Positions 383 to 62,160 are shown, counted from the stretch's first letter. The stretch is 64,000 nt of DNA from an uncultured Hyphomicrobiales bacterium (GCA_964498585.1 CAZCHH010000009.1:3613-67612); one strand, 5' to 3'. Notes: a model not told the origin generated them from the letters alone. Made by a program: numbers and translations.

Positions 383-3094
383 ATGCCTTTAAGTTGGAAT
401 GAAATCAAAGAGCGGGCAGTCGATTTTTCAAAGGAATGGGAAAACGCCTGCAACGAAGAAGCAGACGCAAAACCCTTTTTAGACGCTTTCTTTAATGTAT
501 TTGGTATTAGCAGAAAAAAAGTGGCTACTTTCGAGCATAAAGTGAAAAAACTTGACGAGAGCGATGGCTATATTGATATGCTTTGGAAAGGGACGATTTT
601 AATTGAAATGAAAAGCCGCGGGAAAAATCTCGACAAAGCTTTAGTGCAGGCAAAAGAATATTTACAGGGTTTGCCTCAGCACGAACTTCCCAAATATCTC
701 CTTATTTCCGATTTCCAAAATTTCCGGCTCTTCGACCTCGAAGACGATACCAAAGTCGAATTTAAACTGAATGAACTTGTTTATAACGTCCAGCATTTCG
801 GATACATTCTGGGTTTTCAGAAAAAAGTTTATAAAGAGCAAGACCCCGCGAACATTCAAGCTGCTGAACGTATGGGGAAAATCCACGACAGATTGAAGGA
901 AATCGGCTATGACGGGCATCCGCTCGAAGTGTATTTGGTGCGGCTGCTGTTTTGCCTCTTTGCCGAAGATACTACCATTTTCAATAAAACGCAGTTTCAG
1001 GACTTCATTGAGCAAAGGACTAACGAAGATGGAAGCGACCTCGCTGCTAAACTGAACGAGCTTTTTCAGGTGCTTAATACTCCGCGTGAAAATCGCTTTA
1101 AAAATCTGGACGAGCAGCTTGCCGAATTTCCTTATATAAATGGACGTTTGTTTGAAGAAATGCTACCTACTGCGAGTTTCGATAAGAAAATGCGTTTGGC
1201 TCTCCTTGATTGCTGCGCGATTGACTGGGCAAAGATTTCACCTGCTATTTTCGGCTCTATGTTCCAAAGCGTGATGAATCCTAAAGAAAGGCGAAATCTC
1301 GGCGCCCACTATACTTCTGAAAAAAATATTCTGAAACTCATTAAACCGCTTTTCCTTGATGAACTTTGGAACGAATTTGAAAATGTAAAGGATAACAAAA
1401 GCAAACTTCAGGAGTTTCACAAAAAGCTGAGCAAACTGAAATTCCTCGACCCTGCTTGCGGTTGCGGTAATTTCCTTGTGATTACATACAGGGAGTTGCG
1501 GCTTTTGGAACTTGAAATATTGCGTTCACTTTATAAAACTGGGCAGGGCGTCCTTGATATTCGCGATATTATCTGGCTTGATGTGGATATGTTCTACGGT
1601 ATTGAATACGAAGAGTTCCCTGCACGCATTGCAGAAGTGGCTATGTGGCTTATTGACCACCAAATGAATCTGCTTGTCAGCTTTGAGTTCGGGCAGTATT
1701 TTTCCCGCCTTCCACTGAAAAAATCTGCTAATATAACAAACGGAAACGCCTTGCAAATTGACTGGGAAACCATTGTTCCAAAAAACGAACTTTCTTACAT
1801 TTTGGGTAATCCGCCCTTTGTTGGGTCTAAAATGATGACGGTTGAACAAAGAAACGATGTTTTAAAGGAAGCTAATAATATAAAAGGAAGCGGTGTTTTG
1901 GATTACGTAACTGCTTGGTATTTTAAAGCATCAAAGTTTATTCAGGGAACTAAAATTAAAGCAGCTTTTGTTTCTACAAATTCAATTACACAAGGAGAAC
2001 AGGTTTCTATTATTTGGAGCGAGTTATTAAACAATTATAAAATAAAAATTCACTTTGCACACAAAACGTTTAAATGGAGTAATGAAGCAAAAGGAAACGC
2101 TGCAGTTTATTGTGTAATAATCGGTTTTGCTAATTTTGATACTGATAATAAAAAGATATTTGATTATGAGGATATAAAAGGAGAACCTATTGAATTAAAA
2201 GTAAAAAATGTTAATCCATATTTAGTAGATGCCAAAGACATTTTTATTTTTAAAAGAAGAAAACCAATAAATGAAGTTCCAGAAATTGTTTTTGGAAATA
2301 TGCCGAATGATGGTGGAAATTTTTTTATTATAGATGAAGAAATTAAAGAATACATAGAACAGGAACCTTTATCAGAAAAGTATATTAAACCTTTTTTAGG
2401 TGCTCAGGAATATTTAAATGGAAAGAAAAAATGGTGTTTATGGTTTTATAAAAATTTTGAACCAAAAGATTTGAATTTAATGCCTATTACTTATCAAAGA
2501 ATAAAAAATGTTGAAAAATTAAGGAAAAACAGCAGTAGAAAAACAACAAGGAATTTAGCTTCTTTTCCTACATTATTTGGGGAAGTAAGACAACCTGATT
2601 CTGATTTTATTCTAATTCCGCGTGTTTCATCTGAAAATAGAAAAGTTATTCCTATGAGTATTTTTAACTCTGATTTTATTGTTGGTGATTCTTGTTTAGC
2701 AATACCAAATGCAAAATTATTTCATCTGGGAGTACTTCAATCTTCTATGCACATGGCATGGGTTAAATATGTTTGTGGAAGATTAAAAAGTGATTTCAGA
2801 TATTCAAATGAAATTGTTTACAACAACTTCCCCTGGCCTGAGCAGCCGGGCGAAAAGCAAGTCGAAGCAATAGAGAAAGCGGCACAGAAAGTATTGGACG
2901 CAAGAGCAGAGTACCCGGACAGTTCTTTAGCCGATTTATACGACCCCTTGACAATGCCCCCAAATTTAGTCAAAGCCCATAACGAATTAGACAAAGCAGT
3001 TGATTTAGCATACCGCCCGCAGCCATTTACAACGGAGGCAAAGCGTATGGAATTTCTCTTTGAACTCTACGAGAAAACTTTAAATAATGATTAA
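383..3094 (+). CDS. MmeI-family Type IIL restriction-modification enzyme: a single chain with an N-terminal nuclease, a gamma-class N6-adenine methyltransferase and a target-recognition domain.
   Basis: 903 aa. The N-terminus (MPLSWNEIKERAVDFSKEWE...FEHKVKK...LIEMKSRGKNLDKA) matches MmeI from memory. It has a GCGNFL SAM-binding motif and an NPPF catalytic motif (LGNPPFVGSK). Length and order match MmeI (about 919 aa). Confidence 0.85.
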   Translation: MPLSWNEIKERAVDFSKEWENACNEEADAKPFLDAFFNVFGISRKKVATFEHKVKKLDESDGYIDMLWKGTILIEMKSRGKNLDKALVQAKEYLQGLPQHELPKYLLISDFQNFRLFDLEDDTKVEFKLNELVYNVQHFGYILGFQKKVYKEQDPANIQAAERMGKIHDRLKEIGYDGHPLEVYLVRLLFCLFAEDTTIFNKTQFQDFIEQRTNEDGSDLAAKLNELFQVLNTPRENRFKNLDEQLAEFPYINGRLFEEMLPTASFDKKMRLALLDCCAIDWAKISPAIFGSMFQSVMNPKERRNLGAHYTSEKNILKLIKPLFLDELWNEFENVKDNKSKLQEFHKKLSKLKFLDPACGCGNFLVITYRELRLLELEILRSLYKTGQGVLDIRDIIWLDVDMFYGIEYEEFPARIAEVAMWLIDHQMNLLVSFEFGQYFSRLPLKKSANITNGNALQIDWETIVPKNELSYILGNPPFVGSKMMTVEQRNDVLKEANNIKGSGVLDYVTAWYFKASKFIQGTKIKAAFVSTNSITQGEQVSIIWSELLNNYKIKIHFAHKTFKWSNEAKGNAAVYCVIIGFANFDTDNKKIFDYEDIKGEPIELKVKNVNPYLVDAKDIFIFKRRKPINEVPEIVFGNMPNDGGNFFIIDEEIKEYIEQEPLSEKYIKPFLGAQEYLNGKKKWCLWFYKNFEPKDLNLMPITYQRIKNVEKLRKNSSRKTTRNLASFPTLFGEVRQPDSDFILIPRVSSENRKVIPMSIFNSDFIVGDSCLAIPNAKLFHLGVLQSSMHMAWVKYVCGRLKSDFRYSNEIVYNNFPWPEQPGEKQVEAIEKAAQKVLDARAEYPDSSLADLYDPLTMPPNLVKAHNELDKAVDLAYRPQPFTTEAKRMEFLFELYEKTLNND

Positions 3095-3115
3095 TGATTA
3101 ATGATTAATTGTTAG
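3084..3115. repeat. Heptameric tandem array (TAATGAT)n that overlaps the stop codon of the restriction-modification gene.
   Basis: Reads aataatgattaatgattaatgattaattgttag. It is in inverted orientation relative to the 3391-3438 array. Confidence 0.6.
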
Positions 3116-3123
3116 TTTGATTT

Positions 3124-3360
3124 GTCATTCTGAACCCCAAGATAAAGCAAGTGCTTTATTTAAATAGAGATGACATCAATTAACACAGTCATTCTGAACG
3201 AAGTGAAGAATCCAGAGAGTAGTGGTTAAAAAATTTCTGGATTCTTCACTTCGTTCAGAATGACCGACAAACTATAATGTAATTCCGAAACGAAGTGAGG
3301 AATCTCAAGTATCGTGGTAGCAATGACTTGTGAGATTTCTCACTTCGTTTCGAAATGACA
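3124..3360. repeat. Mosaic cluster of three hairpin elements: A (3124-3176), B (3188-3264, a 35-bp perfect stem) and C (3283-3360).
   Basis: All three show gtcattctga...tcagaatgac-type palindromes. Copies of each family recur at ten or more other loci in the window. Confidence 0.7.
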
Positions 3361-3390
3361 CAATATAAAAAGTCTTTTAACGAATTATAA

Positions 3391-3438
3391 CACTAATCAT
3401 TTATCATTAACAATTAACAATTAATAATTAACAATTAT
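3391..3438. repeat. Heptameric tandem array (TAATCAT/TAACAAT)n that abuts the stop codon of the GH57 gene.
   Basis: Reads cactaatcatttatcattaacaattaacaattaataattaacaatt. Confidence 0.6.
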
Positions 3439-5157
3439 TTATTCTTTCCACCAGCTCAAATCAAGTTCGGTAAATAGAGAATTTCTTTGCTCTGTTTCTT
3501 CTATGTATTTCCAGTCCTGTGGAGAAAGTTGCCCAGTTTCCTTTAGCTTTTCAAGTTTATTGAGCATCGTATTGAAATCAGAATGATGAAATGAAAAGCG
3601 CTGTTCGGCATAGTCACGGGCAGAGAATGTATAAATCAGGAATTGCCAGTCAGATGCCTGCATTAATAATAACTCCCGAAGTGCCTGTTTCAAAACTCTC
3701 GTTTCATCTTCATTTAAATTATTTACGGGGTATTTTTCATAAACAGCTTTCAGACGATTTTCATTGTCGTAAAGTTGCACCCAAGTCCATTTTGTATCCT
3801 CATTACTCCAGACATCGTGATTATTATTTTCACCCCAGGAACCTTCGGGAAGTAGCATTACTTCCTTTGGTTTTATTCTGCTGTATTGCTCAAAAGTAGT
3901 TGCAGAATTAACGTAAGGAGAATGATGTAACCCTTTCAGCACTGCTTTTATAAATTGCGGACCTTCGAACCACCAATGCCCAAAAAGTTCGGTATCAAAA
4001 GGAGTGCAGACAGTAGCAAATTTTCCAGTTGTTCTTTGGTAAAAATTTGATGTGTTTTCGATATGATGGATAAAATGATTTGACTGCATATCAATTTTTT
4101 CTGCGGTCCAATCCGGGTGATAAAGAAGTTTATACATCATATCGGCTTTATTATCAGTAACCCGCCAATACCTTAGACGAGAATCATTACTTTTTTTATG
4201 GAAATCAAGATAGTTCGACTCTCCGGGATAGCCGACCTGACCACTCCAGACCTGCATAGAAATATCGTGATGTCGGGTAAAAGCTGCTGCAGTTCCATAT
4301 TGTGTCTTCTCGCTTGAACTACATTGAAATAAAGAAAGTGGTGATTTATCGAAGCTATTGGGAATATTTTCATAAGAATTTGAACCGATAGAAACAAATT
4401 TATCCTTTTCTGCATCAATAAAAACGCCGAGTGGAGTTGCTCTTTCTGTTAAATCCTGGTCTGTTATAAAATAATTCAAACCATACCGGGCAAGAAACTG
4501 CTCAATACCGGGTCGCAAATGCTCCTTGTGATAAGGAGCAATTGGAATAAGAGATTTCCAGTTATACGAAGGGCGGTAGGCACATTCTGGCAGCCATATT
4601 CCACGTGCTTCACGTCCAAAATGTTTTTTATAGTTTTCAGAAGCAAGCTGAACCTGCAAATTTACGCTTTTGTCTGTTGCAAGAAGAGGAAGATAGCCGT
4701 GAGTAGCGCCACAAGTAAGGATTTCTATAGCTCCGCTGTCCTGCAATTTTTTAAAAGCCCCTATAATTGAATTGCTGTATTTATGAACAAAGTCATTTTT
4801 CCTTTGCTCATACCACCACTGCCAGTATTTTGTTAAATAAATATGATGAAGGTCGTAGCCCCAGTCAGTATATTTTTTTTCATCACCTGAGGCAGCCGCA
4901 ATTTTTTCATCACAATATTTAATAAAAATTTCTTTGAAATCCTGATGCTCAAGCTGTTCACAAAGAACAGGAGATATATCCAAAGTAACTTTTGGATAAA
5001 TACCTTCTTCCATCAATTCATTAAATACATTAAGCAATGGGATATAACATTCGGCAACGGCTTCAGTGAGCCAATCGACTCCGTGGGGCCATGTGCCGTG
5101 GTGTAAAACCCATGGTAAATGGGTATGCAGGACTAATATGAAGTTTCCTGAGTGCAT
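3439..5157 (-). CDS. Glycoside hydrolase family 57 protein (alpha-1,4-glucan branching enzyme or amylase-like).
   Basis: The N-terminus reads LVLHTHLPWVLHHGTWPHG, typical of GH57. Length is 572 aa. Confidence 0.7.
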   Translation of the reverse strand: MHSGNFILVLHTHLPWVLHHGTWPHGVDWLTEAVAECYIPLLNVFNELMEEGIYPKVTLDISPVLCEQLEHQDFKEIFIKYCDEKIAAASGDEKKYTDWGYDLHHIYLTKYWQWWYEQRKNDFVHKYSNSIIGAFKKLQDSGAIEILTCGATHGYLPLLATDKSVNLQVQLASENYKKHFGREARGIWLPECAYRPSYNWKSLIPIAPYHKEHLRPGIEQFLARYGLNYFITDQDLTERATPLGVFIDAEKDKFVSIGSNSYENIPNSFDKSPLSLFQCSSSEKTQYGTAAAFTRHHDISMQVWSGQVGYPGESNYLDFHKKSNDSRLRYWRVTDNKADMMYKLLYHPDWTAEKIDMQSNHFIHHIENTSNFYQRTTGKFATVCTPFDTELFGHWWFEGPQFIKAVLKGLHHSPYVNSATTFEQYSRIKPKEVMLLPEGSWGENNNHDVWSNEDTKWTWVQLYDNENRLKAVYEKYPVNNLNEDETRVLKQALRELLLMQASDWQFLIYTFSARDYAEQRFSFHHSDFNTMLNKLEKLKETGQLSPQDWKYIEETEQRNSLFTELDLSWWKE

Positions 5158-6570: not shown

Positions 6571-6610
6571 TTATTAATTATCTTTCTTTATAAACTCATT
6601 AACCCAATAT

Positions 6611-6668
6611 CACTTATCATTAATCATTTATCATTTATCATTAATCACTTATCACTTATCATTTATCA
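6611..6668. repeat. Heptameric tandem array (TTATCAT/TTATCAC)n that abuts the stop codon of the CoA-transferase gene.
   Basis: Reads cacttatcattaatcatttatcatttatcattaatcacttatcacttatcatttatcact. Confidence 0.6.
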
Positions 6669-7862
6669 CTAAATAACTTGCTTTTCTTTAAATTCCTTAA
6701 TTTCTTCTAAAGTATAACCAACACCAGTTAGGATTTCTTCCGTATGCTCTGAAAGAAATGGAGGAGGAGCTTCGACTCCGCCGGGAGTTTTTTCAAATTT
6801 TGCTGTAATATTAAATAGTTTTAAATCACCAACACCTTCTGCGTTTACTTGCTCAAAAGTTTTGCGATGCTCAATTTGAGGAGCGGAAAGAGCATTTCCT
6901 AAATCAAGGATAGCTCCAGATGGAATATCGTGTTTGTTCAAAATTTCTACCCAGTAATCAGTATTTTGTTCCATCAATTTTTCATCTAAAAGCGGTTTTA
7001 AAACGTATCTGTTTTTTTTGCGTGTATCACGTTCTTTGAAACGTGGGTCTTCTTTTAGTTCAGCAAGATTTAAAATATCAGCAAGATTTTCCCATTGCTC
7101 CTGTTTGTTTGCTGCAATGTTTAAATATCCGTCCTTTGTTTTGAAAACGCCGGAAGGAGCAGCAGTAAAGTTTTCGTTGCCCATAAGCTGTGGCTGCTGT
7201 CCGCCAATCATAAGGTTTGCTACCACCCAACCCATAAGTGGCATAACTGAATCTAGAAGTGCGATGTCGATGAACTGTCCAATGCCAGTTTTTTCTCTGT
7301 AATAAAGAGCTGAACTAATAGCAAAGGCAGCGTTAAGACCGCCTACAGTATCGCAAAGCGGAAAGCCGGCACGAAGCGGATTAAGTCGTTCATCGCCATT
7401 GATTGCCATTACACCGCTTAATCCTTGAATGATTTGGTCGTAAGCCGGTTTGTCGGCATCGGGTCCTGTTTGACCAAAACCGGAAATGGCGCAATATATG
7501 AGCCGTGGATTAATTTCTTTTAAAGTATCATAGCCGACCCCGAGCCGAGTCATCACACCGGGACGGAAGTTTTCTACGACTACGTCAGCAGTAGCAGCTA
7601 ATTTCTTAAAAATATCTTTTGCTTTTTCCTGTTTTAAATTTAGTGTAACAGATTTTTTGTTAGCGTTTTGTGCGAGAAAAGATGTTCCCATTAGTTTTTT
7701 ATTGTAGTCGGGAACGCAGCCCAATTTGCGGGCTAAATCGCCGTCTTTGGGATTTTCTATTTTTATAACTTCAGCTCCGAGCCAAGCTAAATGTAATGTT
7801 GCAAAAGGACCGGACAGAACGTTTGTCAAATCCAGTACTCTTATTCCTTCCATTAGTTTCAT
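6669..7862 (-). CDS. Family III CoA-transferase (CaiB/BaiF/formyl-CoA transferase family).
   Basis: Motifs GIRVLDLT...GPFAT...LGAEVIKIE. Start trimmed to the ATG at 7862, which follows an AAGGAG ribosome-binding site. Confidence 0.8.
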   Translation of the reverse strand: MKLMEGIRVLDLTNVLSGPFATLHLAWLGAEVIKIENPKDGDLARKLGCVPDYNKKLMGTSFLAQNANKKSVTLNLKQEKAKDIFKKLAATADVVVENFRPGVMTRLGVGYDTLKEINPRLIYCAISGFGQTGPDADKPAYDQIIQGLSGVMAINGDERLNPLRAGFPLCDTVGGLNAAFAISSALYYREKTGIGQFIDIALLDSVMPLMGWVVANLMIGGQQPQLMGNENFTAAPSGVFKTKDGYLNIAANKQEQWENLADILNLAELKEDPRFKERDTRKKNRYVLKPLLDEKLMEQNTDYWVEILNKHDIPSGAILDLGNALSAPQIEHRKTFEQVNAEGVGDLKLFNITAKFEKTPGGVEAPPPFLSEHTEEILTGVGYTLEEIKEFKEKQVI

Positions 7863-8025
7863 ATATTCTCCTTTGTTGTATTTTAATTTGCTTGTCATAC
7901 TTGATTTTCCAAATAATTTGGAAAGTTTTTAAATTGATATGACATTTTATATAAAATTTTTCTTTTTTTAACTTTCGCAAAGTTAAAAAACTTTACTAAA
8001 GTATGTTCCTTCAAAAAAAATTGAT

Positions 8026-17562: not shown

Positions 17563-19152
17563 CTACTTTTCTTCTTTTTTGAAATGTGAGAGAATATCAA
17601 CACCGGTGGCGTTTTCAATCATTTCTGAAAGTGAAACAACGGAGCCGGGAAGCTGATTAACTAATTTTGCAAGATTGTTTGTTCCATTCCCGTTGCTGTC
17701 GATAATGCTAATTTTATCAATGTTTATTCCTTTTACTGTGCTAGAGAGTTGCTCAACGAGTTGCGGCAGAATATTTAGAATGAATACCTTTTCTGCATCG
17801 CTTCCGGCACTTGAATACGCCTTAATTGTCTGATTGATAATTGCAATTTTTGCTTCGCCATCGGCAATTATTGTAGCAGCTTTTCCTTTAGCTTCGAGTT
17901 CCATAGCTTCTTTCTTTGCCTTCGATGGTTCAATTACATCGGCAATTAATTTCTTTTGTTGCAAGCTAATGCGTTCCTGTTCAACTTCCTGCTCAAACAT
18001 CACAGCTGCTTTCTGACTTGAAATGCGTGCTTCATTTTCCTTAATCAGAGCTTCTTTGTCCAATTCAGCTTTCTTTATTCTATAATTATTATTCTCAATT
18101 TCGATGATTTGCTTTGCTTTAGCATCGGAAACGGCAATATTTTGCTCGGACTCTATTTGGGCAGTTTCAATTTCCTGTTTTGCCTTTGCTTTTGCTTTTT
18201 CTGCCCTTTCCTGAGCAAGTGCTTCAGCTTCTTTTGCTTCTGCCTGTTTTATTGAATTAGCAATGGCAATATTTTGCTCGGCATTAATTTGAGCAGTTTC
18301 AATTTCCTGTTTTGCCTTTGCCTTGGCTTTTTCAGCAATTTCATTTGCTTCAGCATCGGCTGCTTCAGTGGCAGCATCTTTATTAGCATTGGTTATGGCA
18401 ATATTTTTCTCTTTTTCAATTTGAGCTTTTTCAATGTCCTGATTGGCAATAACTTTAGCAATTTCAGCGCGTTTTAGTGCTGCTGCCCTTGCTTCTTCAG
18501 CTTCTGCCTTGTTGTCTGCTTCTGCTTTTTCAGCAGCTTTAATAAGTTCAGCGGTCTTCATTCTACCGATTGAATCAAGATAGCCGCGCTCGTCTGAAAT
18601 ATTTGTGATTTTGAGTGTATCAAGCTGAAGTCCTAATTTTTGCAAATCTGTTTCTGCTTCTTCCATCAAACTTTCTGCGAATTTCATTCTGTCCTGGTTT
18701 ACTTCTTCTGGAGTTAAAGAAGCAAGCACGCCGCGCAGGTTTCCTTCGAGAGTATCTTTTGCAATGCGATGAATTTCTTCCTGTGTCATCGTTAAAAATC
18801 TTTCTACAGCATTGCCGAAAGCGGGTTCTTTGGAATCAATTTTAATATTTGCAATAGCTTCAACGACAAGCGGGATACCGCCTTTTGAATACGCATTTTT
18901 AACAGACAGGTCAATAGGAATAGTTTCAAGCGACATACGCGATGCCTTTTCTATTAGTGGAATGCGCAATGCCCTACCACCGCGGATAATTCGATAGCCG
19001 ACTATATCGCCGGAAGTTAAACTTCTTTTTCTGCCAGATAGGATAATAACCTCATTTGGTTGTGAAATAAGCAGAAGACGACTTATTGAAATGAAAATGA
19101 AAATCACAGCTACTGCTGCAATCGCAACTAAAGTTAGAATTACAGTGTCCAT
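17563..19152 (-). CDS. Flotillin-like SPFH/band-7 protein (FloT/YuaG-like).
   Basis: N-terminal transmembrane segment and SPFH domain, followed by a long Ala/Glu/Lys-rich coiled coil with an internal repeat. Confidence 0.8.
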   Translation of the reverse strand: MDTVILTLVAIAAVAVIFIFISISRLLLISQPNEVIILSGRKRSLTSGDIVGYRIIRGGRALRIPLIEKASRMSLETIPIDLSVKNAYSKGGIPLVVEAIANIKIDSKEPAFGNAVERFLTMTQEEIHRIAKDTLEGNLRGVLASLTPEEVNQDRMKFAESLMEEAETDLQKLGLQLDTLKITNISDERGYLDSIGRMKTAELIKAAEKAEADNKAEAEEARAAALKRAEIAKVIANQDIEKAQIEKEKNIAITNANKDAATEAADAEANEIAEKAKAKAKQEIETAQINAEQNIAIANSIKQAEAKEAEALAQERAEKAKAKAKQEIETAQIESEQNIAVSDAKAKQIIEIENNNYRIKKAELDKEALIKENEARISSQKAAVMFEQEVEQERISLQQKKLIADVIEPSKAKKEAMELEAKGKAATIIADGEAKIAIINQTIKAYSSAGSDAEKVFILNILPQLVEQLSSTVKGINIDKISIIDSNGNGTNNLAKLVNQLPGSVVSLSEMIENATGVDILSHFKKEEK

Positions 19153-36150: not shown

Positions 36151-36612
36151 ATGAAAATATCTGATATTTTAAATAAAGATAACATAGAATTGTTACCAAA
36201 TATTAGTTCTAAAGCTGCTTTAGTAGATAAACTAATTGAAATTGCTGCAAGAACAGGGAAAATTCTAGACATTGAAGAAGTAAAAAAGCAGGTCTGGGAA
36301 AGAGAAAAACTTATGTCTACAGGAGTAGGTAAAGGAATCGCACTGCCACATGCTAAAACTAATCATATTGCTGATGAAACCGGTGCATTAATCATTTTAA
36401 AGCAGGGAGTTGAATTTGAATCTTTAGATGATAAGCCAGTTAACATTGCATTCCTTCTTATTGGTAAAGAAAATAATGTCGGAAATCATCTTAGATTGCT
36501 CAGTAAAATTTCCAGATTACTTAATAATGAATATTTACGTTCTAACATTATTGAAGCAAAAACAAAAAATGAAATACTTAGCTTATTTGACGAATTTGAG
36601 GAAAGCGAATAA
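36151..36612 (+). CDS. PTS EIIA type-2 domain protein (PtsN/IIA-Ntr-like regulator).
   Basis: Phospho-His motif GIALPHAKT. Stand-alone 153 aa. Confidence 0.7.
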   Translation: MKISDILNKDNIELLPNISSKAALVDKLIEIAARTGKILDIEEVKKQVWEREKLMSTGVGKGIALPHAKTNHIADETGALIILKQGVEFESLDDKPVNIAFLLIGKENNVGNHLRLLSKISRLLNNEYLRSNIIEAKTKNEILSLFDEFEESE

Positions 36613-36650
36613 TAATTGACAATTAACAATTAATAATTAACAATTAAATT
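36610..36650. repeat. Heptameric tandem array (TAACAAT/TAATAAT)n that begins at the stop codon.
   Basis: Reads taataattgacaattaacaattaataattaacaattaaatt. Confidence 0.55.
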
Positions 36651-36659: not shown

Positions 36660-37376
36660 ATGAAAACATTTAAACTATCAATATTATTAATGCTTTTAGC
36701 ATTAATAATATCTTCCTGTTCTCATACAAATAATTTTTCACATTACAATATGGCAAAATCCAAAGTATTGTTTGAAAAAGCATTTGGTTCAGATATAAAT
36801 AAAGTTCATCAGTATTCAACAAATAATTATTCCCGGAAGAAAAGTGATGCTGAAATTTTTTCGCAAACAGCATTGTCGATTGGAAGTGCATTTGTTGGGA
36901 ATGAAATTGAAGAAAAGTTCACTAATGCAGTAAATCCCGACTCAGTTGTTTCAGAAATATCTCAGGGAATAGAGAATACATTGATAAAGTATTTTCAGAT
37001 TCAATCTGAATATGATGTGGCAGGTGAATATGATTATATCTGTATTGTTGCTTTAGAAAGATGCGAGATTTCTTCGGGTTCAGCCGGAGTCAATTTAGAC
37101 CTTGGTGCTACTACAAGGATTATTGATAGAAAAACCGGCGGACTCGTATGGGAGGATTCTGAAAATGAAAATATCCAATTGCGTTTTTCTACTACAAATT
37201 ACAATAGCAAATCCGGATTAGAACGCACACTAAACGATGCAACACAAGTTGCAATGCTTGCTTCTCTAAGCGAAGATGAGATTAGAAAGGCAGTCCGAAA
37301 CGCTTCTTCTGAAATTTCACGTCTATTCGGACAAACATTGCAGGAAGACTTTATGGAAATGAATAAGACAAGATAG
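36660..37376 (+). CDS. Hypothetical lipoprotein.
   Basis: Lipobox IISSCSH. 238 aa. Confidence 0.4.
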   Translation: MKTFKLSILLMLLALIISSCSHTNNFSHYNMAKSKVLFEKAFGSDINKVHQYSTNNYSRKKSDAEIFSQTALSIGSAFVGNEIEEKFTNAVNPDSVVSEISQGIENTLIKYFQIQSEYDVAGEYDYICIVALERCEISSGSAGVNLDLGATTRIIDRKTGGLVWEDSENENIQLRFSTTNYNSKSGLERTLNDATQVAMLASLSEDEIRKAVRNASSEISRLFGQTLQEDFMEMNKTR

Positions 37377-37641: not shown

Positions 37642-38022
37642 TTAATGTCCGATAAATGCTTTGTATTGTTCCGCATTCATTAAAGAATCAAGTTCGGAAG
37701 GATTTTCGATTTCAATTTTAATCATCCAGCCATCGCCATAAGGGTCTTGATTAACTACTTCAGGATTGTTATTTATATCGCGATTAACCTGAATAACTTT
37801 GCCAGAGCAGGGGGCATTAATATCTGCTACTGTTTTTACAGCTTCAATGGTACCAAAGCTTTCATCTTTTCTAATTTCGACCAGGTCTTCCGAAATATCA
37901 ACGTAAACAACATCACCAAGCTCGCCTTGTGCGTGGTCTGTAACTCCTATCGTTCCAATGTTGCCTTCGATTTTTATCCATTCGTGGTCTTTTGTGTAAT
38001 TTAAATTTTCTGGAATATTCAT
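37642..38022 (-). CDS. gcvH: Glycine cleavage system H protein.
   Basis: Lipoyl-lysine motif EAVKTVADINAPCSG. 126 aa. Confidence 0.9.
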   Translation of the reverse strand: MNIPENLNYTKDHEWIKIEGNIGTIGVTDHAQGELGDVVYVDISEDLVEIRKDESFGTIEAVKTVADINAPCSGKVIQVNRDINNNPEVVNQDPYGDGWMIKIEIENPSELDSLMNAEQYKAFIGH

Positions 38023-38506
38023 TTTATTAATCCATTAAAATTAAAAAATATATTTGTATCTTTTCATTATATCAAATTTAAAAATTTTTTGGTATATTTT
38101 GTAATAAAAAATTAAATTTATTTAAAAAACTTACTTTTTTAAAAAAATATGCTTCTGTGATATAAATTATTTAAAATGAAATTTAAAAATTCTCATTTCA
38201 AGGCATTTATAAACGAAGACTTTTACTTTTTTAAAAATGAATGATATAGACATTGGATGAAGAAAATGAAATATAAGGTTGTAATTTTGTGTTCATTTGT
38301 GGAATAAAAATTTCAAAAATTGAAAAAGAACAATATATAATCTCATAACTTCTGATTCTAAAACAAAAATAAAGACATAGAAGATTTACTTCGTAGATAA
38401 TAATCTCTAGTTAAATTTGATTCTTTTCTTGGAAATAGGAATTGGGAATTAGGAATTAGGTATAATCTTATACCAAGTTGCATTTAATGATAAATTTTAT
38501 TTATTT

Positions 38507-48099: not shown

Positions 48100-48335
48100 C
48101 TCCTTCCCAAGTTGAATTTGGGAAGGAGGTGAAATGACATAATTAGACTGTCATTCTGACGGATGTCAGAATCCATCTTTAAAATCGTTCTTACGGTCAT
48201 TAGTTATTAGTCATTAGTTTTTATACTAATAACGAATGATAAAAAATGCAAGATAGATTCTGGCATACGCCAGAATGACAGACAAAGATGTCATTAACCA
48301 TCAGCACTTTATTCCCTCTCAAGAGTGAATTCGTA
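48100..48335. repeat. Family-H palindrome, a D-family MITE (48150-48279) and a family-E end fragment.
   Basis: gtcattctgacggatgtcagaatccatcttt ... agatagattctggcatacgccagaatgac. Confidence 0.7.
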
Positions 48336-48341
48336 AGTTCG

Positions 48342-52545: not shown

Positions 52546-52591
52546 CTTAATAATTAACAATTAATAATTAACAATTAACAATTAACAATTA
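52546..52591. repeat. Heptameric tandem array (TAACAAT)n ending on the stop codon of the histidine kinase gene.
   Basis: Reads cttaataattaacaattaataattaacaattaacaattaacaatt. Confidence 0.6.
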
Positions 52592-54874
52592 ATTCAAATA
52601 TTTGCTTATTATTTCATACACTTTTTTCTTAACGAGTGGTTTGATTAAATAGTCATCGCATCCTATAGATAGTATAGTATTTCTTTCTTCGCTAAAGGCA
52701 TAAGCGGTTTGAGCAATTATTGGTAAATCCGGTCTAATCTTTTTAATTATCTTTGTTGCTTCGATTCCATCCATAACCGGCATTCTGATATCCATTAAAA
52801 TCAAGTCGATGTCTGGAATATTTTTAACAATTTCTACTGCCTGCTCTCCATTAATAGCATGAATAACATTGATACCTGATTCACCTAAAAGCCGAATAAG
52901 ATACTGCGTGCTTATCCAATCATCTTCAGCAACAAGAACTGTCCCTTTCGTTCCCTTGACTGTTTTACCTGTATCTTCACTCACCGGTTCAAAATATTGA
53001 GCAATAGGAATATATGGGATAGAAAAATAAAATGTTGAACCAACATTTAATTCGGATTCCACCCAAATCTTTCCACCAATAAGTTCAACAAGTCCCTTGC
53101 AAATTGCGAGTCCGAGACCAGCTCCTTCAAACCCTCTTGATATACTCAAGTCAGCTTGTGTGAACTTATCGAAAATTTTCTCGTGAAATTCTGGAGTTAT
53201 TCCAATTCCAGTATCTTTTACGTAGAACTGAACAATTTCACCTTTGATTTCATAACCAAAATCAATACTCCCAGACATTGTAAATTTTATTGCATTATTG
53301 ATTAAGTTTGTCAATATCTGAAACAGCTTGGATTCGTCTGAATAAATTAATTCATTTGTATCATCGGTGCAATGGTAGTTTAATGTAATATTTTTTGTTC
53401 GTGCAAAAGGAGAGAAAAATGTAAGTAAATCTGAAAATATCGAATTAATACTAATAGTTTTTTGTTCTAATTTAAACTGTCCTGTTTGAATTTTAGAAAT
53501 ATCAAGTATATTGTTTACAATTTCAATTAGCCGTTTTCCACTTTGGGAAATCATAGCTGTAAATTCTTTAATATCATCTTTGCTTAAGTCATCTGCATTT
53601 AATAAAGTAGAAAAACCAATAATTCCATTTAAAGGAGTTCGTATTTCATGAGACATATTTTGCAAGAAAGCTGTTTTTAACTTATCACTTTCTTCTGCTT
53701 TCATTTTTGTAAGCATCAATTCTTGTTCAGCTATCTTTCTGTCTGTAATATCAAAGCAATGTCCGATATAACCAACAAATTCACCTTTGCTGTTATAATT
53801 CGGTGTTCCTAAATCATTAATCCAGCGATATTCTCCATTTGCATTTTTTAATCGGTATTCCATTTCAAATGTATCCCGTTTATAGAAAGCAGATATATAA
53901 ATTTTTAAGCAATTATCCAAATCATCAGGATGAACCCCATCAGTCCAGCCATTACCCATTTCCTGCTCAATAGTTTTTCCAGTAAAACTAAGCCATGCCT
54001 TGTTGAAATAATTACATAGCTTATCTGTTCCGGAAGTCCAAATTAGCGCAAGACCGGAATCGGCAAGCATTTTGTATTGCACCTCTTTTTCGCAAAGTTC
54101 ATTTTCTGCCCGTTTCCGTGCTGTTATATCGCGAATATTACATTGAATCACGTTTTGATGGTCAACTTTATATACATTGCTTACAAATTCAACATTAATT
54201 TTGCGTCCATTAGAAGTTTCTAATGGCAAATCATCATAACGAACATAATTATTCTCTTTTAATTCCAAAAACTTTTCCTGGTTAGATATGATATCCCTAA
54301 ATAATCCAATATCCCAGATTTTCTTTTCTACGAACTGTTCATAAGAATAGCCGAGCAATTCAATCAGGAAAGGATTAATATCAACAATTTTCCCTGTTTC
54401 TGCATCTAAAATAATAATTCCGTCTTTAGTTGACTCAAATAGGCGCCGGTATCTTGCTTCAGAATCAAAAAGTGCATCATTAATAATTTTTTGTTCGGTT
54501 ATATCCCGTAATACAATGAAAAATATTATTTCATCATCTATAATTCTTTTACTAATGCTTACTTCGACTGGAAACATTTTACCACTTTTGTGAACTCCGT
54601 TCAGTTCTAAACCTTTGCTCATCTTTAGAGTATTTTCAATTGAATTTTGAAAATTTTTTACATTCTCACGATGCTTTTCTTTTACTAAAGGAGGAATAAG
54701 AATATCAAGCTGCCTGCCGATGACTTCATCGCATTTATAACCAAATATTCTTACCGCTCCCTGATTGAAGAAAATTATATTATATTTTCCATCAATCGCT
54801 ATAAATGCGATTTGGTCAATATTTTCAACACTGGATAACAGTGCTTCGCTTGTTATATAATTTTTCTTTTCCAT
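52589..54874 (-). CDS. Hybrid sensor histidine kinase (PAS x3, HisKA, HATPase_c, receiver).
   Basis: H-box SHEIRTPLN. G-boxes DTGIGI and GLGLAICK. C-terminal receiver with the conserved Asp (LILMDIRMP). Confidence 0.85.
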   Translation of the reverse strand: MEKKNYITSEALLSSVENIDQIAFIAIDGKYNIIFFNQGAVRIFGYKCDEVIGRQLDILIPPLVKEKHRENVKNFQNSIENTLKMSKGLELNGVHKSGKMFPVEVSISKRIIDDEIIFFIVLRDITEQKIINDALFDSEARYRRLFESTKDGIIILDAETGKIVDINPFLIELLGYSYEQFVEKKIWDIGLFRDIISNQEKFLELKENNYVRYDDLPLETSNGRKINVEFVSNVYKVDHQNVIQCNIRDITARKRAENELCEKEVQYKMLADSGLALIWTSGTDKLCNYFNKAWLSFTGKTIEQEMGNGWTDGVHPDDLDNCLKIYISAFYKRDTFEMEYRLKNANGEYRWINDLGTPNYNSKGEFVGYIGHCFDITDRKIAEQELMLTKMKAEESDKLKTAFLQNMSHEIRTPLNGIIGFSTLLNADDLSKDDIKEFTAMISQSGKRLIEIVNNILDISKIQTGQFKLEQKTISINSIFSDLLTFFSPFARTKNITLNYHCTDDTNELIYSDESKLFQILTNLINNAIKFTMSGSIDFGYEIKGEIVQFYVKDTGIGITPEFHEKIFDKFTQADLSISRGFEGAGLGLAICKGLVELIGGKIWVESELNVGSTFYFSIPYIPIAQYFEPVSEDTGKTVKGTKGTVLVAEDDWISTQYLIRLLGESGINVIHAINGEQAVEIVKNIPDIDLILMDIRMPVMDGIEATKIIKKIRPDLPIIAQTAYAFSEERNTILSIGCDDYLIKPLVKKKVYEIISKYLN

Positions 54875-55178: not shown

Positions 55179-55394
55179 AGGATAGAGGTATGAGTTACAT
55201 AATTAGTAAAACTTTTCATATAATTTACTGATTTTATTGGTATTTCCGAATTAGTGCCAGTGCATAATCTTTATATACATATACGCAATGAGTAACTAAA
55301 AATCAAATAATTTTGGAAATTAAATTCTCTGGAAAGTTGGGAAACTTTGGGAAAGAAATAAAAAAACTATACCAAATAGCTAATAAACTGAATA

Positions 55395-55522
55395 ATTCAT
55401 CCGATGACTTCCCAGTCATCAGATGAATAGATTCAGACAAAGCGTGGCAGTCATACTATCAACAAGTTGATAGCATGACTTCTATCTTGTCATGCTATCA
55501 TTTCCCAATGATAGTATGACTG
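55395..55522. repeat. Three family-G hairpins with gtcat...atgac ends.
   Basis: attcatccgatgact/agtcatcagatgaat; gtcatactatcaac-aa-gttgatagcatgac; gtcatgctatcat...atgatagtatgac. Confidence 0.55.
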
Positions 55523-55618
55523 AATGGATTGATTAAGAAATGATTAGAAAGGAAATTATAAAGGGAAATATATTATGGTAGCAAGAATTTATTAGAAAAA
55601 AGGTATATGGAAGGGATT

Positions 55619-56179
55619 TTATAGGTTATTAATTCCTTTGCGTCTTTTTACACTCAAATTTTTGAAAAAAGTTGGGGTTAGTCCAGTTACTTTTTTAAAT
55701 TGGAATGATAAGTGCTGCACACTGCTATAATGCAACTTCCAGGCAATTTCAGAAAGATTTAGTTCATTATAAACCAATAATTCTTTTACCCGTTCAATTT
55801 TCTGATGAATAATGAAATGCTCTATAGTAGTGCCATGGACTTCTGAGAACAGATTGGAAAGATATTTATAATCATATTGCAATTGCTCGCTAATAAAATC
55901 TGAAAAATTTATATTTAATTCTTCCTCAGAATAATGAATTTGTTCAATTATAATGTTTTTGATTTTTTCAATTAGCATTGCACGTTTATCAGCAATAAGT
56001 TCCAAGCCGAATTTCTTCAATGACTTATCTATTTCTTCAAATTGTTCATTTGAAAAACTATCAATAATATCAACTTCACCTAAAACCAAATTTGAATAAC
56101 GTAATCCCAGCTTTTCCAAAACATCTTTAACTACTAACTTGCATCGAATACATACCATATTTTTTATATATAGCTTCAT
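55619..56179 (-). CDS. AraC-family transcriptional regulator with an N-terminal heavy-metal-associated (HMA, MxCxxC) domain.
   Basis: N-terminus MKLYIKNMVCIRCKLVVKDVLEKLGL (HMA-like). C-terminal AraC helix-turn-helix (...IAWKLHYSSVQHLSFQFKKVTGLTP). Confidence 0.6.
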   Translation of the reverse strand: MKLYIKNMVCIRCKLVVKDVLEKLGLRYSNLVLGEVDIIDSFSNEQFEEIDKSLKKFGLELIADKRAMLIEKIKNIIIEQIHYSEEELNINFSDFISEQLQYDYKYLSNLFSEVHGTTIEHFIIHQKIERVKELLVYNELNLSEIAWKLHYSSVQHLSFQFKKVTGLTPTFFKNLSVKRRKGINNL

Positions 56180-56456
56180 TAATTAAAAATCCTATTGTTG
56201 ATTAATCTTACACATTAAAGAAAATATTTTTTTTAACATTTTAAAATACAAAAATATTTTATATGTTGCAAAATATTACCTTGTCCTATGAGAAAAAAAA
56301 TTCATTAACATTTTCCGTTTAAAAATTCAGAACTTTGGCACCATAAATTTTTTTATTTCGCAGTTTATCAAATGAAAACTCTTATTTTAAAAGTGAATTA
56401 CTAATTCGTTATTAGTAGTTACAAACATATAACTAATGACTAAATACCAATAACCA

Positions 56457-56484
56457 CAATTAGCAATTAATAATTAACAATTAT
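56457..56484. repeat. Heptameric tandem array next to the stop codon of the VWA gene.
   Basis: Reads caattagcaattaataattaacaattat. Confidence 0.5.
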
Positions 56485-57477
56485 TTACGGCACTCTTCTA
56501 AAAACAGTATAGCTCAATATTATTTCAAATGCAATTAGAATGGCTGCAAGAATTGCGAGCGGAAGGAACTCGTCCCGATATTGACTGAAAGTAAGTTCGT
56601 CAATAGCAGTTTTTTCCATTTTGTCAATTTCAGCGTAAACTTCCTTGAGTCCTTTGTTGTTTGTAGCACGGAAGTATTTTCCGCCAGTCATATTTGAAAC
56701 CTGTTTGAGCAAATCTTCATCAATTTGCACTTCAATATTTTGGTATTGGATACCAAAAGGCGTTTTAAATGGATAAGGAGCCATACCGCGAGTACCAACG
56801 CCGATAGAATACACTTTCATTTTAAAAGATTTTGCAATTTCAGCAGCAGTCATAGGTGCAATGTAGCCAGTATTGTTTACTCCATCAGTAATTAGAATAA
56901 TCACTTTGCTTTTCGCGGTGCTGTTCATCAGCCGGTTGACAGCAGTTGCAAGCCCAAGCCCTATTGCAGTTCCGTCCTCAACCATATTTGTTTTTATGCC
57001 TTCAAATAAATTTTTGAGAGTGCTGTGGTCAGTAGTTAAAGGGCATTGAGTAAAACTTTCCCCTGCAAATACAACAAGACCAATCCTGTCATTCTGGCGG
57101 TTGTCAATGAACTCAATTGCAGTTTTCTTTGCAGCTTCAAGGCGGTTTGGAGAAAAATCCTTTGCTTCCATTGATGTAGAAATATCAAGGGCAACCACAA
57201 TGTCGATGCCCTCTGTTTTCACTTCTTTGTGGCTCAAAGTGGATTGTGGGCGTGCAAGAATGACGATAATCGTTGCAATAAGCAAAATCCTTAAAACAAA
57301 AAGTATATGCCTGAAAATTTGCTTAGCAGATGTTTTGGTTTGAATTAGCGGCTCTATTGTCGAAACCTGTAATTTCGGCTTTTGCTTCTTTTCCCGGAAA
57401 ACATACCAGGCAATCAAAAAAGGAATAATTATCAAAAAATAAAAATAGCCCGGCGATACAAAAATTATGTGTTCCAC
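56485..57477 (-). CDS. von Willebrand factor A-domain membrane protein (BatA-like).
   Basis: N-terminal transmembrane segments. MIDAS-like motif DISTSM...T...DG. C-terminal transmembrane segment. Confidence 0.7.
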   Translation of the reverse strand: MEHIIFVSPGYFYFLIIIPFLIAWYVFREKKQKPKLQVSTIEPLIQTKTSAKQIFRHILFVLRILLIATIIVILARPQSTLSHKEVKTEGIDIVVALDISTSMEAKDFSPNRLEAAKKTAIEFIDNRQNDRIGLVVFAGESFTQCPLTTDHSTLKNLFEGIKTNMVEDGTAIGLGLATAVNRLMNSTAKSKVIILITDGVNNTGYIAPMTAAEIAKSFKMKVYSIGVGTRGMAPYPFKTPFGIQYQNIEVQIDEDLLKQVSNMTGGKYFRATNNKGLKEVYAEIDKMEKTAIDELTFSQYRDEFLPLAILAAILIAFEIILSYTVFRRVP

Positions 57478-59705: not shown

Positions 59706-59871
59706 CCAAGATGATAAAAATGCGAAATAAATTACTACGTAGGTTCTGGAACTCTATTGCAGAAAAATCATATATCCTTAATTATATTGAACTTAATTTG
59801 GAACTTTACATAATATTTTGTATATTTGTATGAAATATCGTTTTGTCCAATATAAAAAAGGAGTAGTAATT

Positions 59872-61230
59872 ATGGTTCAAACAGAGCAGAATACTAACCC
59901 AAAAAGAATTTTAATCAACGAGCAAAAAAGCGAAAGATGGGTTGATTGGAAATGGCAAATCAGAAATTCCATTAGAGATATTGGAGCATTTGAGCAGCTA
60001 ACAGGAATAAAATTTTCCAATGAAGAAAAGGAAGATTTAAAAAAAACTCTTGACATTTTCCCATTATCAATTACCCCGTATTATTTATCTTTAATAGATA
60101 AAGAAGATTTTCGAAATGACCCAATTTTTCGACAATCTTTTCCTTCGCCATCAGAACTCATCGTTGAAGATTATGATATGAAAGACCCCCTTTCAGAAGA
60201 AAAGGACAGTCCCTGTCAGGGAATTACACACAGATATCCGGACAGAGTTTTGTTTCATATTAGCAATATATGTTCTATGTATTGCAGGCATTGCACCAGA
60301 AAAAGAAAAGTCGGCGATTCAGATTTCATTCCAGATAAAGAATCTATTCAAATTGGTTTGGATTATATTAAATCCACTCCGGTGGTTCGAGATGTTTTGC
60401 TTTCCGGTGGCGACCCTTTAATGCTTTCTGATAAATATTTAGATTGGATTTTAAATGAATTAAGAAGTATTCCACATGTTGAAATCATAAGAATAGGAAC
60501 GAGAATGCCGGTTGTTCTTCCGTATAGAATTACTCCGGAGCTTATTTCAGTTTTAAAGAAATACCAGCCATTATGGATAAATACGCATTTCAATCATCCA
60601 AGAGAAATTACTGCTGTTTCCAGAAAAGCTGTTAATATGCTTGCCGATGCAGGATTTCCACTTGGGAATCAAAGTGTTTTGCTTGCCGGAATAAATGACT
60701 GCCCACGAATAATGAAAGATTTAGTTCATAAATTAGTAAAAAACAGGATTCGCCCATATTATATTTACCAGTGCGATTTATCTGAGGGCTTAGCTCATTT
60801 CCGAACTCCGATAGGAAAAGGAATTGAGATAATGGAAAGCTTAATCGGTCATACAAGCGGGTTTGCTGTTCCGACTTATGTCGTGGACGCTCCCGGTGGC
60901 GGTGGTAAAATTCCCCTTATGCCTAATTATCTGATTTCCTGGTCAACAAATAAAGTTGTTCTCCGAAATTACGAAGGAGTTATTACTACATACAAAGAGC
61001 CAGATTCGTATGAACCGGTTTTCTGCGACAGGAACTGCAAGGACTGTTCTTTACAATTGAATCTAAGTGAACCAGACGAGCTAAAAATTACTGGTATTTA
61101 TGAACTTCTTTCTGATTATGAAGACAGGTTTACTCTTGTTCCAAGCGGAAATATGAGATTTATTAGAAGAAATGGCTATGATGACGATAACGAAAGCAAC
61201 TTTGATAGTGAAGGAGAGGCAGATGAATAG
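59872..61230 (+). CDS. kamA: Lysine 2,3-aminomutase (radical SAM, PLP-dependent).
   Basis: [11 protein letters not shown] radical-SAM cluster motif and the KamA family signature. Start at ATG 59872 after AAGGAG. Confidence 0.85.
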
Positions 61231-62065
61231 TAAAAATGATTTTGATAGTATTATCCAATTTAAGAATTCTTTAATTCAATATGGGAAAAATAGCGATAGA
61301 GTTTATCTAATGAAACTTGATAGTAACGAAAATGAGGTTATTAGTTTTATTGAACAATTAGCTATTGAAAATGATTTAGGAAAAATTTTTACTAAAGTTC
61401 CGGAAACTTCTATTCAAGCTTTTCTTAATAATAATTATAGAATTGAAGCAGAAATTCCAAATTACTTTAAAAGTGATAAATGTTATTTTGCTTCAAAATT
61501 TGTAAAAAAAGAAAGAGAATTTGTTAGCGAAGAACTTTCTTTAGAAATAGAAAATAATATTAAACTTGCTAAATCAAAAGCAAGTTCTGAAATGAAGGAA
61601 TTTGATAGCTCAATTAGAATTAAAGTTTTAGATTCAAAAGATTTAGAAAAAGCGGCTGAACTTTACCGAATAGTTTTCAAATCATATCCTTTCCCAATTT
61701 TTGACGCATCATATTTAGAAAGCACATTAGACCATATTATGTATTTTGGTGCTTTTGTAAATGGGCAGCTTGTTGCCTGCTCATCATCTGAAATGTATGT
61801 TCAGGATTCAAGCGTTGAAATGACTGATTTTGCAACTCTTCCAGATTATCTTGGGAAAAATATCAGTTCTATGCTTCTGTTTACAATGGAAAATGTTATG
61901 AAAGCAAATGGAATAAATACTTCCTACACTATTGCAAGAGCAATGTCGAAAGGAATGAATATTACTTTTGCAAAAAATGCTTATACGTTTTCCGGAACTT
62001 TGATTAATAATACTGATATTTTTGGTAAAATTGAATCTATGAATGTTTGGTATAAACATTTGTAA
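61223..62065 (+). CDS. ablB: GNAT-family acetyltransferase, putative beta-lysine N6-acetyltransferase (AblB/YodP-like).
   Basis: Follows kamA directly. Its ATG overlaps the kamA stop by 8 bp (ATGAATAG). GNAT-like C-terminal half. Start chosen at MNSKNDF. Confidence 0.55.
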
Positions 62066-62087
62066 TAACATTCAGGTATCCTGATTA

Positions 62088-62160
62088 GTTATTGGGTTAT
62101 TGGGTTATTGGTTTATTGGTTATTAGTTATTGGGTTATTGGGTTATTGGGTTATTGGGTT
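62088..62160. repeat. Tandem array (GTTATTGG)n, about 9-10 units.
   Basis: Reads gttattgggttattgggttattggtttattggttattagttattgggttattgggttattgggttattgggtt, immediately after the ablB stop. Confidence 0.7.

Follow-up and report, generated by a model that had tools for sequence, protein, structure and literature searches.

Tandem heptanucleotide repeats have been known in bacteria since 1990. The STRR heptamers of heterocystous cyanobacteria, attributed to Mazel et al. (1990), are said to be arranged in tandem and dispersed in non-coding DNA. In the survey of Mrazek et al. (2007), as far as it is summarized in PMC4679880, heptanucleotides were the commonest of the long simple sequence repeats (LSSRs; units of 5–11 nt), which were intergenic and were ascribed to polymerase slippage. 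MacGregor (2015) described TAACTGA arrays in Beggiatoaceae, Cyanobacteria, and five Bacteroidetes; each forward frame is supplied with stops, and 13 of these arrays overlap the upstream stop codon (PMC4679880). Rehm et al. (2015, PLoS One) reported GGGAATC repeats in Xanthomonas and GGGGA(C/T)T repeats in Nostoc PCC 7120, for which G-quadruplexes were proposed; these repeats show a strong bias toward positions within 50 bp of a stop codon when on the sense strand and upstream of an open reading frame (ORF) when on the antisense strand (PMC4692102). Here we describe AT-rich heptamer arrays at stop codons in a 64-kb stretch of DNA (GCA_964498585.1, CAZCHH010000009.1:3613-67612), the whole of which we call the window. 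The arrays belong to the same heptanucleotide simple-sequence class as STRR, TAACTGA, and GGGAATC/GGGGAYT, and their AT-rich units are new.

Arrays in the window were called using Tandem Repeats Finder and an independent detector, and both recovered the seven arrays of an initial annotation, all of which are real; that list had overlooked a (GGAATTA)4 array at 38431–38460 and a TTAGTCA-like array at 48196–48223. Period 7 was found at six loci, with 3.6–8.7 copies and 80–100% matches by Tandem Repeats Finder and our own detector, and period 8 at one, (GTTATTGG)9.4. At a G+C content of 32%, the window held seven period-7 arrays, whereas 100 dinucleotide shuffles gave 0.04 on average and never more than 1; the same detector found zero arrays of periods 9–12 in the window. 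The units fall into two families, TAATGAT/TRRTGAT (3085 and 6608) and TAATTGT/TAATTAT, which reads AATTAAC on the other strand (3406, 36610, 52547, and 56456). The single unit formula TAAYMAT given previously fits the four arrays of the AATTAAC type (+ strand) but not the two of the TAATGAT/TRRTGAT family.

The six heptamer arrays touch or overlap stop codons, at offsets of −10 to +1 nt. The stop lies inside the array at 3085 (stop 3092–3094, the gene's TAA being the TAA of the second unit) and at 52547 (stop 52589–52591, the TAA of the first unit), and it forms the first 3 nt of the array at 36610 (stop 36610–36612). At 6608 the gap is 0 nt, with the TAG at 6669–6671 in phase as the first unit (TAGTGAT), and at 3406 and 56456 1 nt separates the array from a TAA stop (3439–3441 and 56485–56487, respectively). 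Uniform placement of each array within its own spacer would give the six contacts with a joint probability of about 1e-5, even when contact is defined as liberally as −25 to +10 nt. The claim that every array begins at or overlaps a stop codon was borne out for the heptamers but not for the octamer, which starts 22 nt after its stop. The ORFs flanking the six heptamer arrays (MmeI, GH57, CoA-transferase, PTS-EIIA, hybrid kinase, and BatA by Pfam) are complete, and their Pfam domains end 2–23 residues before the stop (at most 5 in five of the six).

A genome-wide scan, which had been proposed as a check, was run on two samples and gave non-random placement at stops in both. The broad sample, a (TAATKRT)3 scan of one genome per species, yielded 120 or more stretches, with Cyanobacteria, Bacteroidota, and Parabeggiatoa as the main sources; among the matches listed, both flanks were defined for 81 arrays, 31 of which were stop-flush, compared with 22.5 expected (z = 3.0). 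The matches listed include Flavobacterium agrisoli, Gelidibacter maritimus, Parapedobacter soli, Sandaracinomonas limnophila, and Reichenbachiella faecimaris. The lineage sample came from a metagenome scan for the lineage-specific hairpin described below and comprised 78 contigs (430 kb, 32% G+C). Here 18 of 25 non-element heptamer arrays with both flanks defined were stop-flush, compared with 2.8 expected (z = 9.9). Period 7 accounted for 48 arrays in these 430 kb, and periods 6, 8, and 9 for 5, 10, and 4, respectively. TAATGAT, TAATTGT, TAAGTGA, and TAATTGA recur at about 25 non-redundant lineage loci, and none of these arrays lies inside an ORF body. At six or more of the flush loci among them, the array's first TAA doubles as the stop of the gene; at another six the array starts exactly one base past the stop (TAR-A-TAAT...), and at the remainder the ORF extends one or two units into the array. 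Together, these results indicate that the arrays are real and clearly non-random.

Orientation is as regular as position. Read in the sense of the gene whose stop they touch, the arrays follow the pattern TAA[T/G]KRW, with G present and C absent. We scored polarity as G minus C on the sense strand, taking as genes the longest non-overlapping ORFs of at least 150 codons and as pre-start arrays those within 40 nt of an ATG. In this lineage, post-stop arrays with G over C outnumbered those with C over G by 21:0, and pre-start arrays had C over G in a ratio of 3:0. Among the matches listed, the corresponding ratios were 12:1 and 11:2 in other Bacteroidota and 8:5 and 7:1 in Cyanobacteria, and the post-stop polarity of all Bacteroidota (33:1) differed from that of cyanobacteria (8:5; Fisher p = 0.004). 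Post-stop placement applies to six of the seven window arrays and 21 of the 25 lineage arrays. The sole polarity exception in the window, array 36610, whose sense strand contains C and is poor in G, is explained by its being the pre-start type: it fills its 47-nt spacer and is the only window array ending just before a start codon (about 10–12 nt before that of ORF 36660..37376). The signal emerged only when post-stop and pre-start contexts were separated and G was scored against C; orientation of the TAATKRT pattern as such showed no bias in the broad sample (16 sense versus 24 antisense among the matches listed, p = 0.27). A shadow-ORF artefact was ruled out, as the polarity seen with looser gene sets held when the scoring was repeated with this strict one.

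The convergent arrays 3085 and 3406 had been noted as an inverted pair, and array 3396..3438 is indeed inverted relative to 3085–3115, as follows from the polarity rule applied to convergent genes. Since the orientation flips here within 350 bp, it tracks the gene and not the direction of replication, and replication strand was ruled out as its cause. In silico, the two arrays can also pair with each other, closing the hairpin cluster that lies between them.

Table 1. Tandem arrays, and one neighbouring hairpin-element cluster, in the 64-kb window
Feature	Coordinates	Strand	Context
(TAATGAT)3.6 then TAATTGT	3085–3109, to 3115	+	Post-stop, MmeI-like gene 383..3094
Hairpin-element cluster (GTCATTCTGA-type modules)	3124..3365		Between two convergent arrays; neighbour, not part of an array
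A(TAATTGT/TAATTAT)4 TAATGAT AAATGAT on − strand	3396..3438	−	Post-stop, GH57 gene 3439..5157
(TRRTGAT)8.7 on − strand	6608..6668	−	Post-stop, CoA-transferase gene 6669..7898
(AATTAAC)5-type	36610..36650 (repeat call to 36647)	+	Spacer between PTS-EIIA gene and ORF 36660..37376
(GGAATTA)4 on + strand	38431..38460	−	TAATTCC (C over G) in sense of downstream gcvH 37642..38022
Heptamer (GTCATTA/GTTATTA) + inverted copy	48196..48240		Internal stem of hairpin-element module B
(TAATTGT/TAATTAT)6.6 on − strand	52547..52592	−	Post-stop, hybrid histidine kinase 52589..54874
A TAATTGT TAATTAT TAATTGC TAATTGT GGTTATT GGTATTT on − strand	56440..56484	−	Post-stop, BatA gene 56485..57477
(GTTATTGG)9.4 octamer	62088..62160	+	22 nt after stop of ORF 61172..62065

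Several details qualify the entries of Table 1. Array 3085..3115 contains 0 C and 3 G and has stops in all six frames. The core of array 3396..3438 is 3406–3437, with degenerate units from 3396, and the repeat call proper on the BatA side is 56456–56483. Array 6608..6668 is composed of TAGTGAT, AAATGAT, AAGTGAT, and TAATGAT units. The array at 48196 represents a second heptamer class, which is not stop-anchored. The sense strand of the octamer is G-rich, C-free, and essentially without stops; its 3′ half (62126–62160, GGG-TTATT x4) is a G3N5 run of the canonical quadruplex type, read in the sense of the upstream gene.

The BatA array differs between close relatives. The BatA orthologues all share one stop codon and the ending ...RVP-stop, whether an array follows or not. 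In the window, the batA 3′ end reads TAA-A-(TAATTGT)4; in a strain that is 99% identical (L001), it reads TAG-A-(TAATGAT)2-TAATTGT followed by GGTTATT units, so that even the unit type differs; a 95% relative has a weak TGGTTAT pair only; and relatives at 85%, 64%, and 62% have no array and instead a short spacer, a hairpin element, or a terminator. These comparisons indicate that the arrays are recent additions directly 3′ of an unchanged native stop, and they appear to be quickly replaced. Rapid phase variation is not seen, as array 36610 is identical across 10 metagenome contigs from different samples, and the arrays are not hypermutable. Truncation or replacement of the native C terminus by an array was excluded for BatA by the shared ...RVP-stop and is unlikely at the other genes, whose Pfam domains end close to the stop. 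Exact-protein look-ups with the CoA-transferase and GNAT genes returned no record, and the sole GH57 contig (L131) ends 28 nt past the gene, inside the array.

The gene content of the window includes a Por_Secre_tail protein of the type IX secretion system and BatA; the closest named BatA homologues (94–95% identity) are annotated as Candidatus Kapabacteria, and a Candidatus Kapaibacterium metagenome-assembled genome (L041, L124) carries the same hairpin motif in the same stop-array-hairpin layout. On this evidence, we assign the lineage to Kapabacteria (Bacteroidota) and not to cyanobacteria, which the combination of heptamers and hairpins had first suggested.

Short-read contigs end at arrays or hairpin clusters, and the BatA contigs are just 2.4–2.7 kb long; the arrays and neighbouring hairpin elements fragment short-read assemblies and mark strain-variable junctions. 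At one place an 18-kb segment (38461–56418) is absent from five independent contigs (L001, L002, L004, L005, and L010), in which 38460 is joined to 56419, and two other contigs agree with the window across it. Both junctions lie inside heptamer arrays, (GGAATTA)4 being the left one. The segment encodes GH130, GT4, radical-SAM/B12, SPFH, OmpA, hybrid kinase, and AraC genes; neither an integrase nor a transposase was found in it. The adjoining stretch of about 330 nt at the batA 3′ end (56419–56743) is 90–92% identical to L002, L004, L005, and L010, and the opposite side of the junction is 99.8% identical between haplotypes; judged by these identities, 56419–56743 looks like a recombination tract from a diverged strain.

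The best explanation we can offer for arrays that are heptanucleotide in period, anchored at stops beyond a retained native codon, polarized with the transcript, and rapidly turned over is that repeats made by slippage are filtered by transcript-level constraints, a tentative reading to which we give a probability of roughly 45%. Arrays would be born and change in size by slipped-strand mispairing, for which a 7-nt bias is known in bacterial repeats, and a deletion bias stripping neutral spacer would bring them flush against the nearest constrained element, here the stop codon. RNA-level selection would then discard those in the wrong orientation. The sense units found post-stop are UAAUGAU, UAAUUGU, UAAGUGA, and GGUUAUU, all of them C-free, the pre-start unit AAUUAAC is G-poor, and the arrays fold into weak A-U stems only (−3.5 to −6.9 kcal/mol). 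Rho loads on unstructured, C-rich, G-poor, ribosome-free RNA. Beyond the stop, where ribosomes no longer cover the message, a C-free array would be unable to serve as such a loading site, so transcription could continue to the first stable hairpin; one hypothesis, then, is that C-free post-stop arrays escape Rho, a factor absent from cyanobacteria (PMC13289151), whose post-stop polarity is the weaker one (8:5 versus 33:1 among the matches listed). In a leader, a G-free array would offer no AUG, GUG, or UUG and little structure, which would fit start choice without a Shine-Dalgarno sequence in Bacteroidota; Bacteroidetes do not use Shine-Dalgarno sequences, and AUG is depleted near their start codons (PMC6847099). 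All-frame stops would be a by-product of this process and the hairpin elements independent tenants of the same spacers.

A terminator scan of the window detected no terminator-like hairpin between a stop and its heptamer array, and no intrinsic terminator (G+C-rich stem-loop plus U tract) inside the arrays; the first terminator-like hairpins lie beyond them, an arrangement consistent with the arrays being the first part of the 3′ untranslated region. Overall, the terminator scan and a sigma-70 promoter scan were uninformative; promoter counts equalled those of shuffles, and the consensus is not applicable to Bacteroidota.

Several points weigh against slippage followed by transcript-level filtering. 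Transcription of the arrays, their relation to Rho, and the leader effect are all predictions, and the deletion-bias step is an assumption. A selective filter alone does not predict offsets of 0 or +1 nt at 12 loci. Premature termination by Rho would not have to do much damage behind the final gene of an operon, yet wrong-orientation post-stop arrays number 0 of 21 in the lineage and 1 of 13 in other Bacteroidota (among the matches listed). The recurrence of TAATGAT and TAATTGT across loci and phyla suggests a cause more specific than neutral slippage, for example a binding protein. Finally, the Nostoc repeats were reported with the same distribution despite the lack of Rho (PMC4692102).

Selection for translational termination is an unlikely alternative in our judgment. 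The arrays would be terminators or insulators in which a run of UAA and UGA in every sense frame, with U or G after each UAA, releases readthrough, frameshifted, or re-initiating ribosomes before they reach the structured repeat cluster. In E. coli, no termination context is stronger than UAAU. Stops are present in each of the three sense frames of every post-stop array of the TAAT type, and a single TAATGAT, TAAGTGA, or TAATTGA unit holds two of them. The gene-sense orientation is found in 21 of 21 lineage arrays, and at the six or more loci mentioned above the array takes its first TAA from the stop of the gene itself. Stops in all six frames, ascribed earlier to all the arrays, were found in five of the seven; 6608–6668 has them in three sense frames and one antisense frame only, and (GTTATTGG)n on the − strand only, apart from one TAG on the + strand. 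Because the unit holds TAA and its length of 7 is coprime with 3, the all-frame property is largely a by-product of the unit sequence. Orthologues lacking an array, as in BatA, stop at the same codon, and arrays are lost or swapped between close relatives. Furthermore, 37 of the 44 window genes have no array, five of them with hairpin elements within 12–35 nt of the stop; GTTATTGG, GGTTATT, and TAATGGT arrays take the same position and polarity with few or no sense stops; and Xanthomonas GGGAATC follows the same rule without stops (PMC4692102). Of the suggested role as an all-frame stop or insulator, what stands is the density of stops on the gene-sense strand, set against its arithmetic origin, the native stop that is kept, and the many genes without an array.

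Also doubtful is the possibility that the arrays are single-stranded RNA platforms bound by a protein that covers about 7 nt, of the cold-shock-domain or S1 kind, which would mark the boundaries of ORFs and govern antitermination or the stability of mRNA 3′ ends. The T/G-rich units GTTATTG and TTGTTAA resemble the heptanucleotide preferences reported for cold-shock proteins. A few unit sequences recur across loci and phyla, polarity is strictly strand-specific, the arrays are weakly structured, and S1, Csp, and CsrA were named as candidates for TAACTGA (MacGregor 2015, PMC4679880). However, the arrays are not conserved at orthologous sites, units drift within single arrays, and many different units follow the rule, including G-rich ones in other phyla; the protein itself is only a postulated one. 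A broader version, in which we place little confidence, is that heptamer arrays are general gene-boundary punctuation on the transcript, read or deliberately ignored by machinery that acts on single-stranded RNA over about 7 nt (Rho, S1, or cold-shock-domain proteins). If so, C-free post-stop and G-free pre-start arrays would set where ribosome-free RNA terminates, decays, and re-initiates, and the published rule for G-rich repeats would, by the example of the AT-rich arrays of Bacteroidota, prove independent of G-quadruplexes.

The spacers of the window are also crowded by hairpin elements, which chain in a modular manner and all start with GTCATTCTGA, both here (3124–3365, 8024–8237, 11194–11590, 48150–48279, 50420–50685, 51883–52496, and 62163–62475) and in the related contigs L132–L209. 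The GTCATTCTGA motif occurs 31 times compared with 4.6 expected. A first module, GTCATTCYGAACCCC...ATAAAGCAAGTGCTTTATTTAAATGGAGATGAC, is usually followed by a second, GTCATTCTGACGGATGTCAGAATCCATCTT...AAGATGGATTCTGGCATACGCCAGAATGAC, whose internal stem consists of inverted (TTAGTCA/TTGGTCA)n and which has many copies in L132–L209. We take the TTGGTCA/TTAGTCA unit to be the STRR2 unit of cyanobacteria. These elements have the features of miniature inverted-repeat transposable elements or repetitive extragenic palindromes, namely terminal inverted repeats or a stable palindrome in dispersed near-identical copies; a stable palindrome is lacking from the arrays, which form weak A-U stems only. An Rfam gathering search of the whole window, hairpin elements included, gave no match, and no tRNA or tmRNA gene was found in the window.

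It is quite unlikely that the arrays are landing pads for these elements, with TTAA/TAA-rich targets, or footprints of their insertion or excision. TTAA is present at every unit junction of TAATGAT and TAATTGT, an array passes straight into an element end (...TTGTCTT|GTCATTCTGA) at eight loci or more, one element family has its own inverted heptamer array, and short-read contigs break at sites where array and element meet. An array between the stop and a hairpin cluster, as described earlier for nearly all loci, is clear at 3085, 3406, 52547, and 62088 but not at 6608, where a different palindrome lies about 190 nt off, at 56456, where there is a heptamer-hairpin remnant only, or at 36610, which has no hairpin cluster. 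Moreover, only 9 of 20 stop-flush arrays (45%) lie within 100 nt of a hairpin motif, compared with 39% of all non-ORF positions on the same contigs; with no excess proximity, a special association was ruled out. Arrays occur without elements (36610 and several lineage loci) and elements without arrays, no split-array or target-duplication signature is seen, and the arrays flanking 3124–3365 are inverted and not direct. Stop-anchored arrays of the same polarity also occur at other Bacteroidota loci that lack the GTCATTCTGA motif. The notion of an insertion target or by-product thus retains the observation that arrays often abut a first element.

Action on duplex DNA, as bent or nucleoid-protein sites (the phased A-tract site of the initial annotation) or as recombination hot spots bounding exchangeable gene blocks, is very improbable: for it speak the 18-kb segment missing from five contigs with both junctions in arrays, the 90% identity next to the junction versus 99.8% elsewhere, the rearrangement role suggested for TAACTGA by MacGregor (2015, PMC4679880), and the equivalence of three units to two helical turns, but the data hold a single such junction, the segment lacks an integrase or transposase, the 7-bp period is out of helical phase, and polarity goes with the strand of the gene and reverses within 350 bp between 3085 and 3406, which is not expected from duplex binding or recombination and points to a constraint at the transcript level.

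Some further features of the window deserve mention. Of the 37 ORFs with 150 codons or more, 29 end in TAA, 8 in TAG, and none in TGA, compared with 15% ending in TGA among such ORFs on related metagenome contigs; the TGA trinucleotide itself is common in the window (1233 occurrences). A-rich tandem repeats with nested periods of 21, 42, and 84 (TAAATAAAAGAAAGAAGCAAA...) occupy 25327–25718 in a 745-nt spacer of 24–27% G+C, and a 132-nt repeat (18119–18441; 2.4 copies, 74% matches) lies in ORF 17563..19152, presumably encoding a repeated protein segment. Same-strand ORF pairs overlap by 59–125 nt in different frames at 39224–40634, 44547–46704, and 59818–62065; over-extended start codons, frameshifts, or sequencing errors are possible causes. 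At the left end of the window, 383–3094 encodes a complete MmeI-type restriction-modification fusion, in which each of the five MmeI Pfam domains is present; this gene and the GH57 gene are convergent.

Among described systems, the LSSR and STRR classes share with these arrays three or more head-to-tail units, an excess of period 7, and many non-coding loci with few shared units. STRR differs in that the stop-anchored arrays use other units in another phylum, and stop anchoring is outside its description. The LSSR account, in the part summarized by MacGregor, is at survey level, with no positional or polarity rule and without coverage of Kapabacteria. The TAACTGA arrays are closer: they have stops in all forward frames, an unusual taxonomic range, some overlap with stops, Shine-Dalgarno-poor hosts, and other heptamers in the same spacers. 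Their range (Beggiatoaceae, Cyanobacteria, and some Bacteroidetes) is mostly shared by the 120 or more (TAATKRT)3 stretches. The TAACTGA unit itself does not occur in the arrays described here, whose units are TAATGAT, TAATTGT, and similar, and the Maribeggiatoa arrays lie mostly a few nt upstream of starts, in forward orientation, whereas six of the seven arrays here are post-stop. With one G and one C per unit, TAACTGA would also make a G/C polarity rule invisible.

The closest likeness is to the repeats of Rehm et al., which are likewise tandem 7-nt units at many intergenic loci next to functionally unrelated genes and vary in length and sequence among close relatives. They lie near or over a stop when the G-rich strand is coding and before an ORF when it is non-coding, and both placements recur here: downstream arrays overlap the stop or are found no more than 50 bp from it, the G strand being the coding one, and upstream, near the start, the G strand is non-coding, as at 36610. 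The offset from the stop is tighter (0, +1 nt, or overlap), and the host is a member of the Kapabacteria. Tracts of three or more G and a preference for four units are absent from the TAAT-type arrays, whose units hold one G or none in 3.6–8.7 copies; being AT-rich, they allow no G-quadruplex, and only the octamer at 62088 has G3 tracts. These arrays thus add a new phylum-level host and new AT-rich units to a known repeat class, and the contrast between near-absolute polarity in Bacteroidota (33:1) and weaker polarity in the Rho-less cyanobacteria (8:5), among the matches listed, yields a concrete hypothesis that is testable in cultivable Flavobacteriia. Finding the strand rule in units unable to form G-quadruplexes removes the structure proposed to explain it and, on the present analysis, would show that the published rule is independent of such structures.

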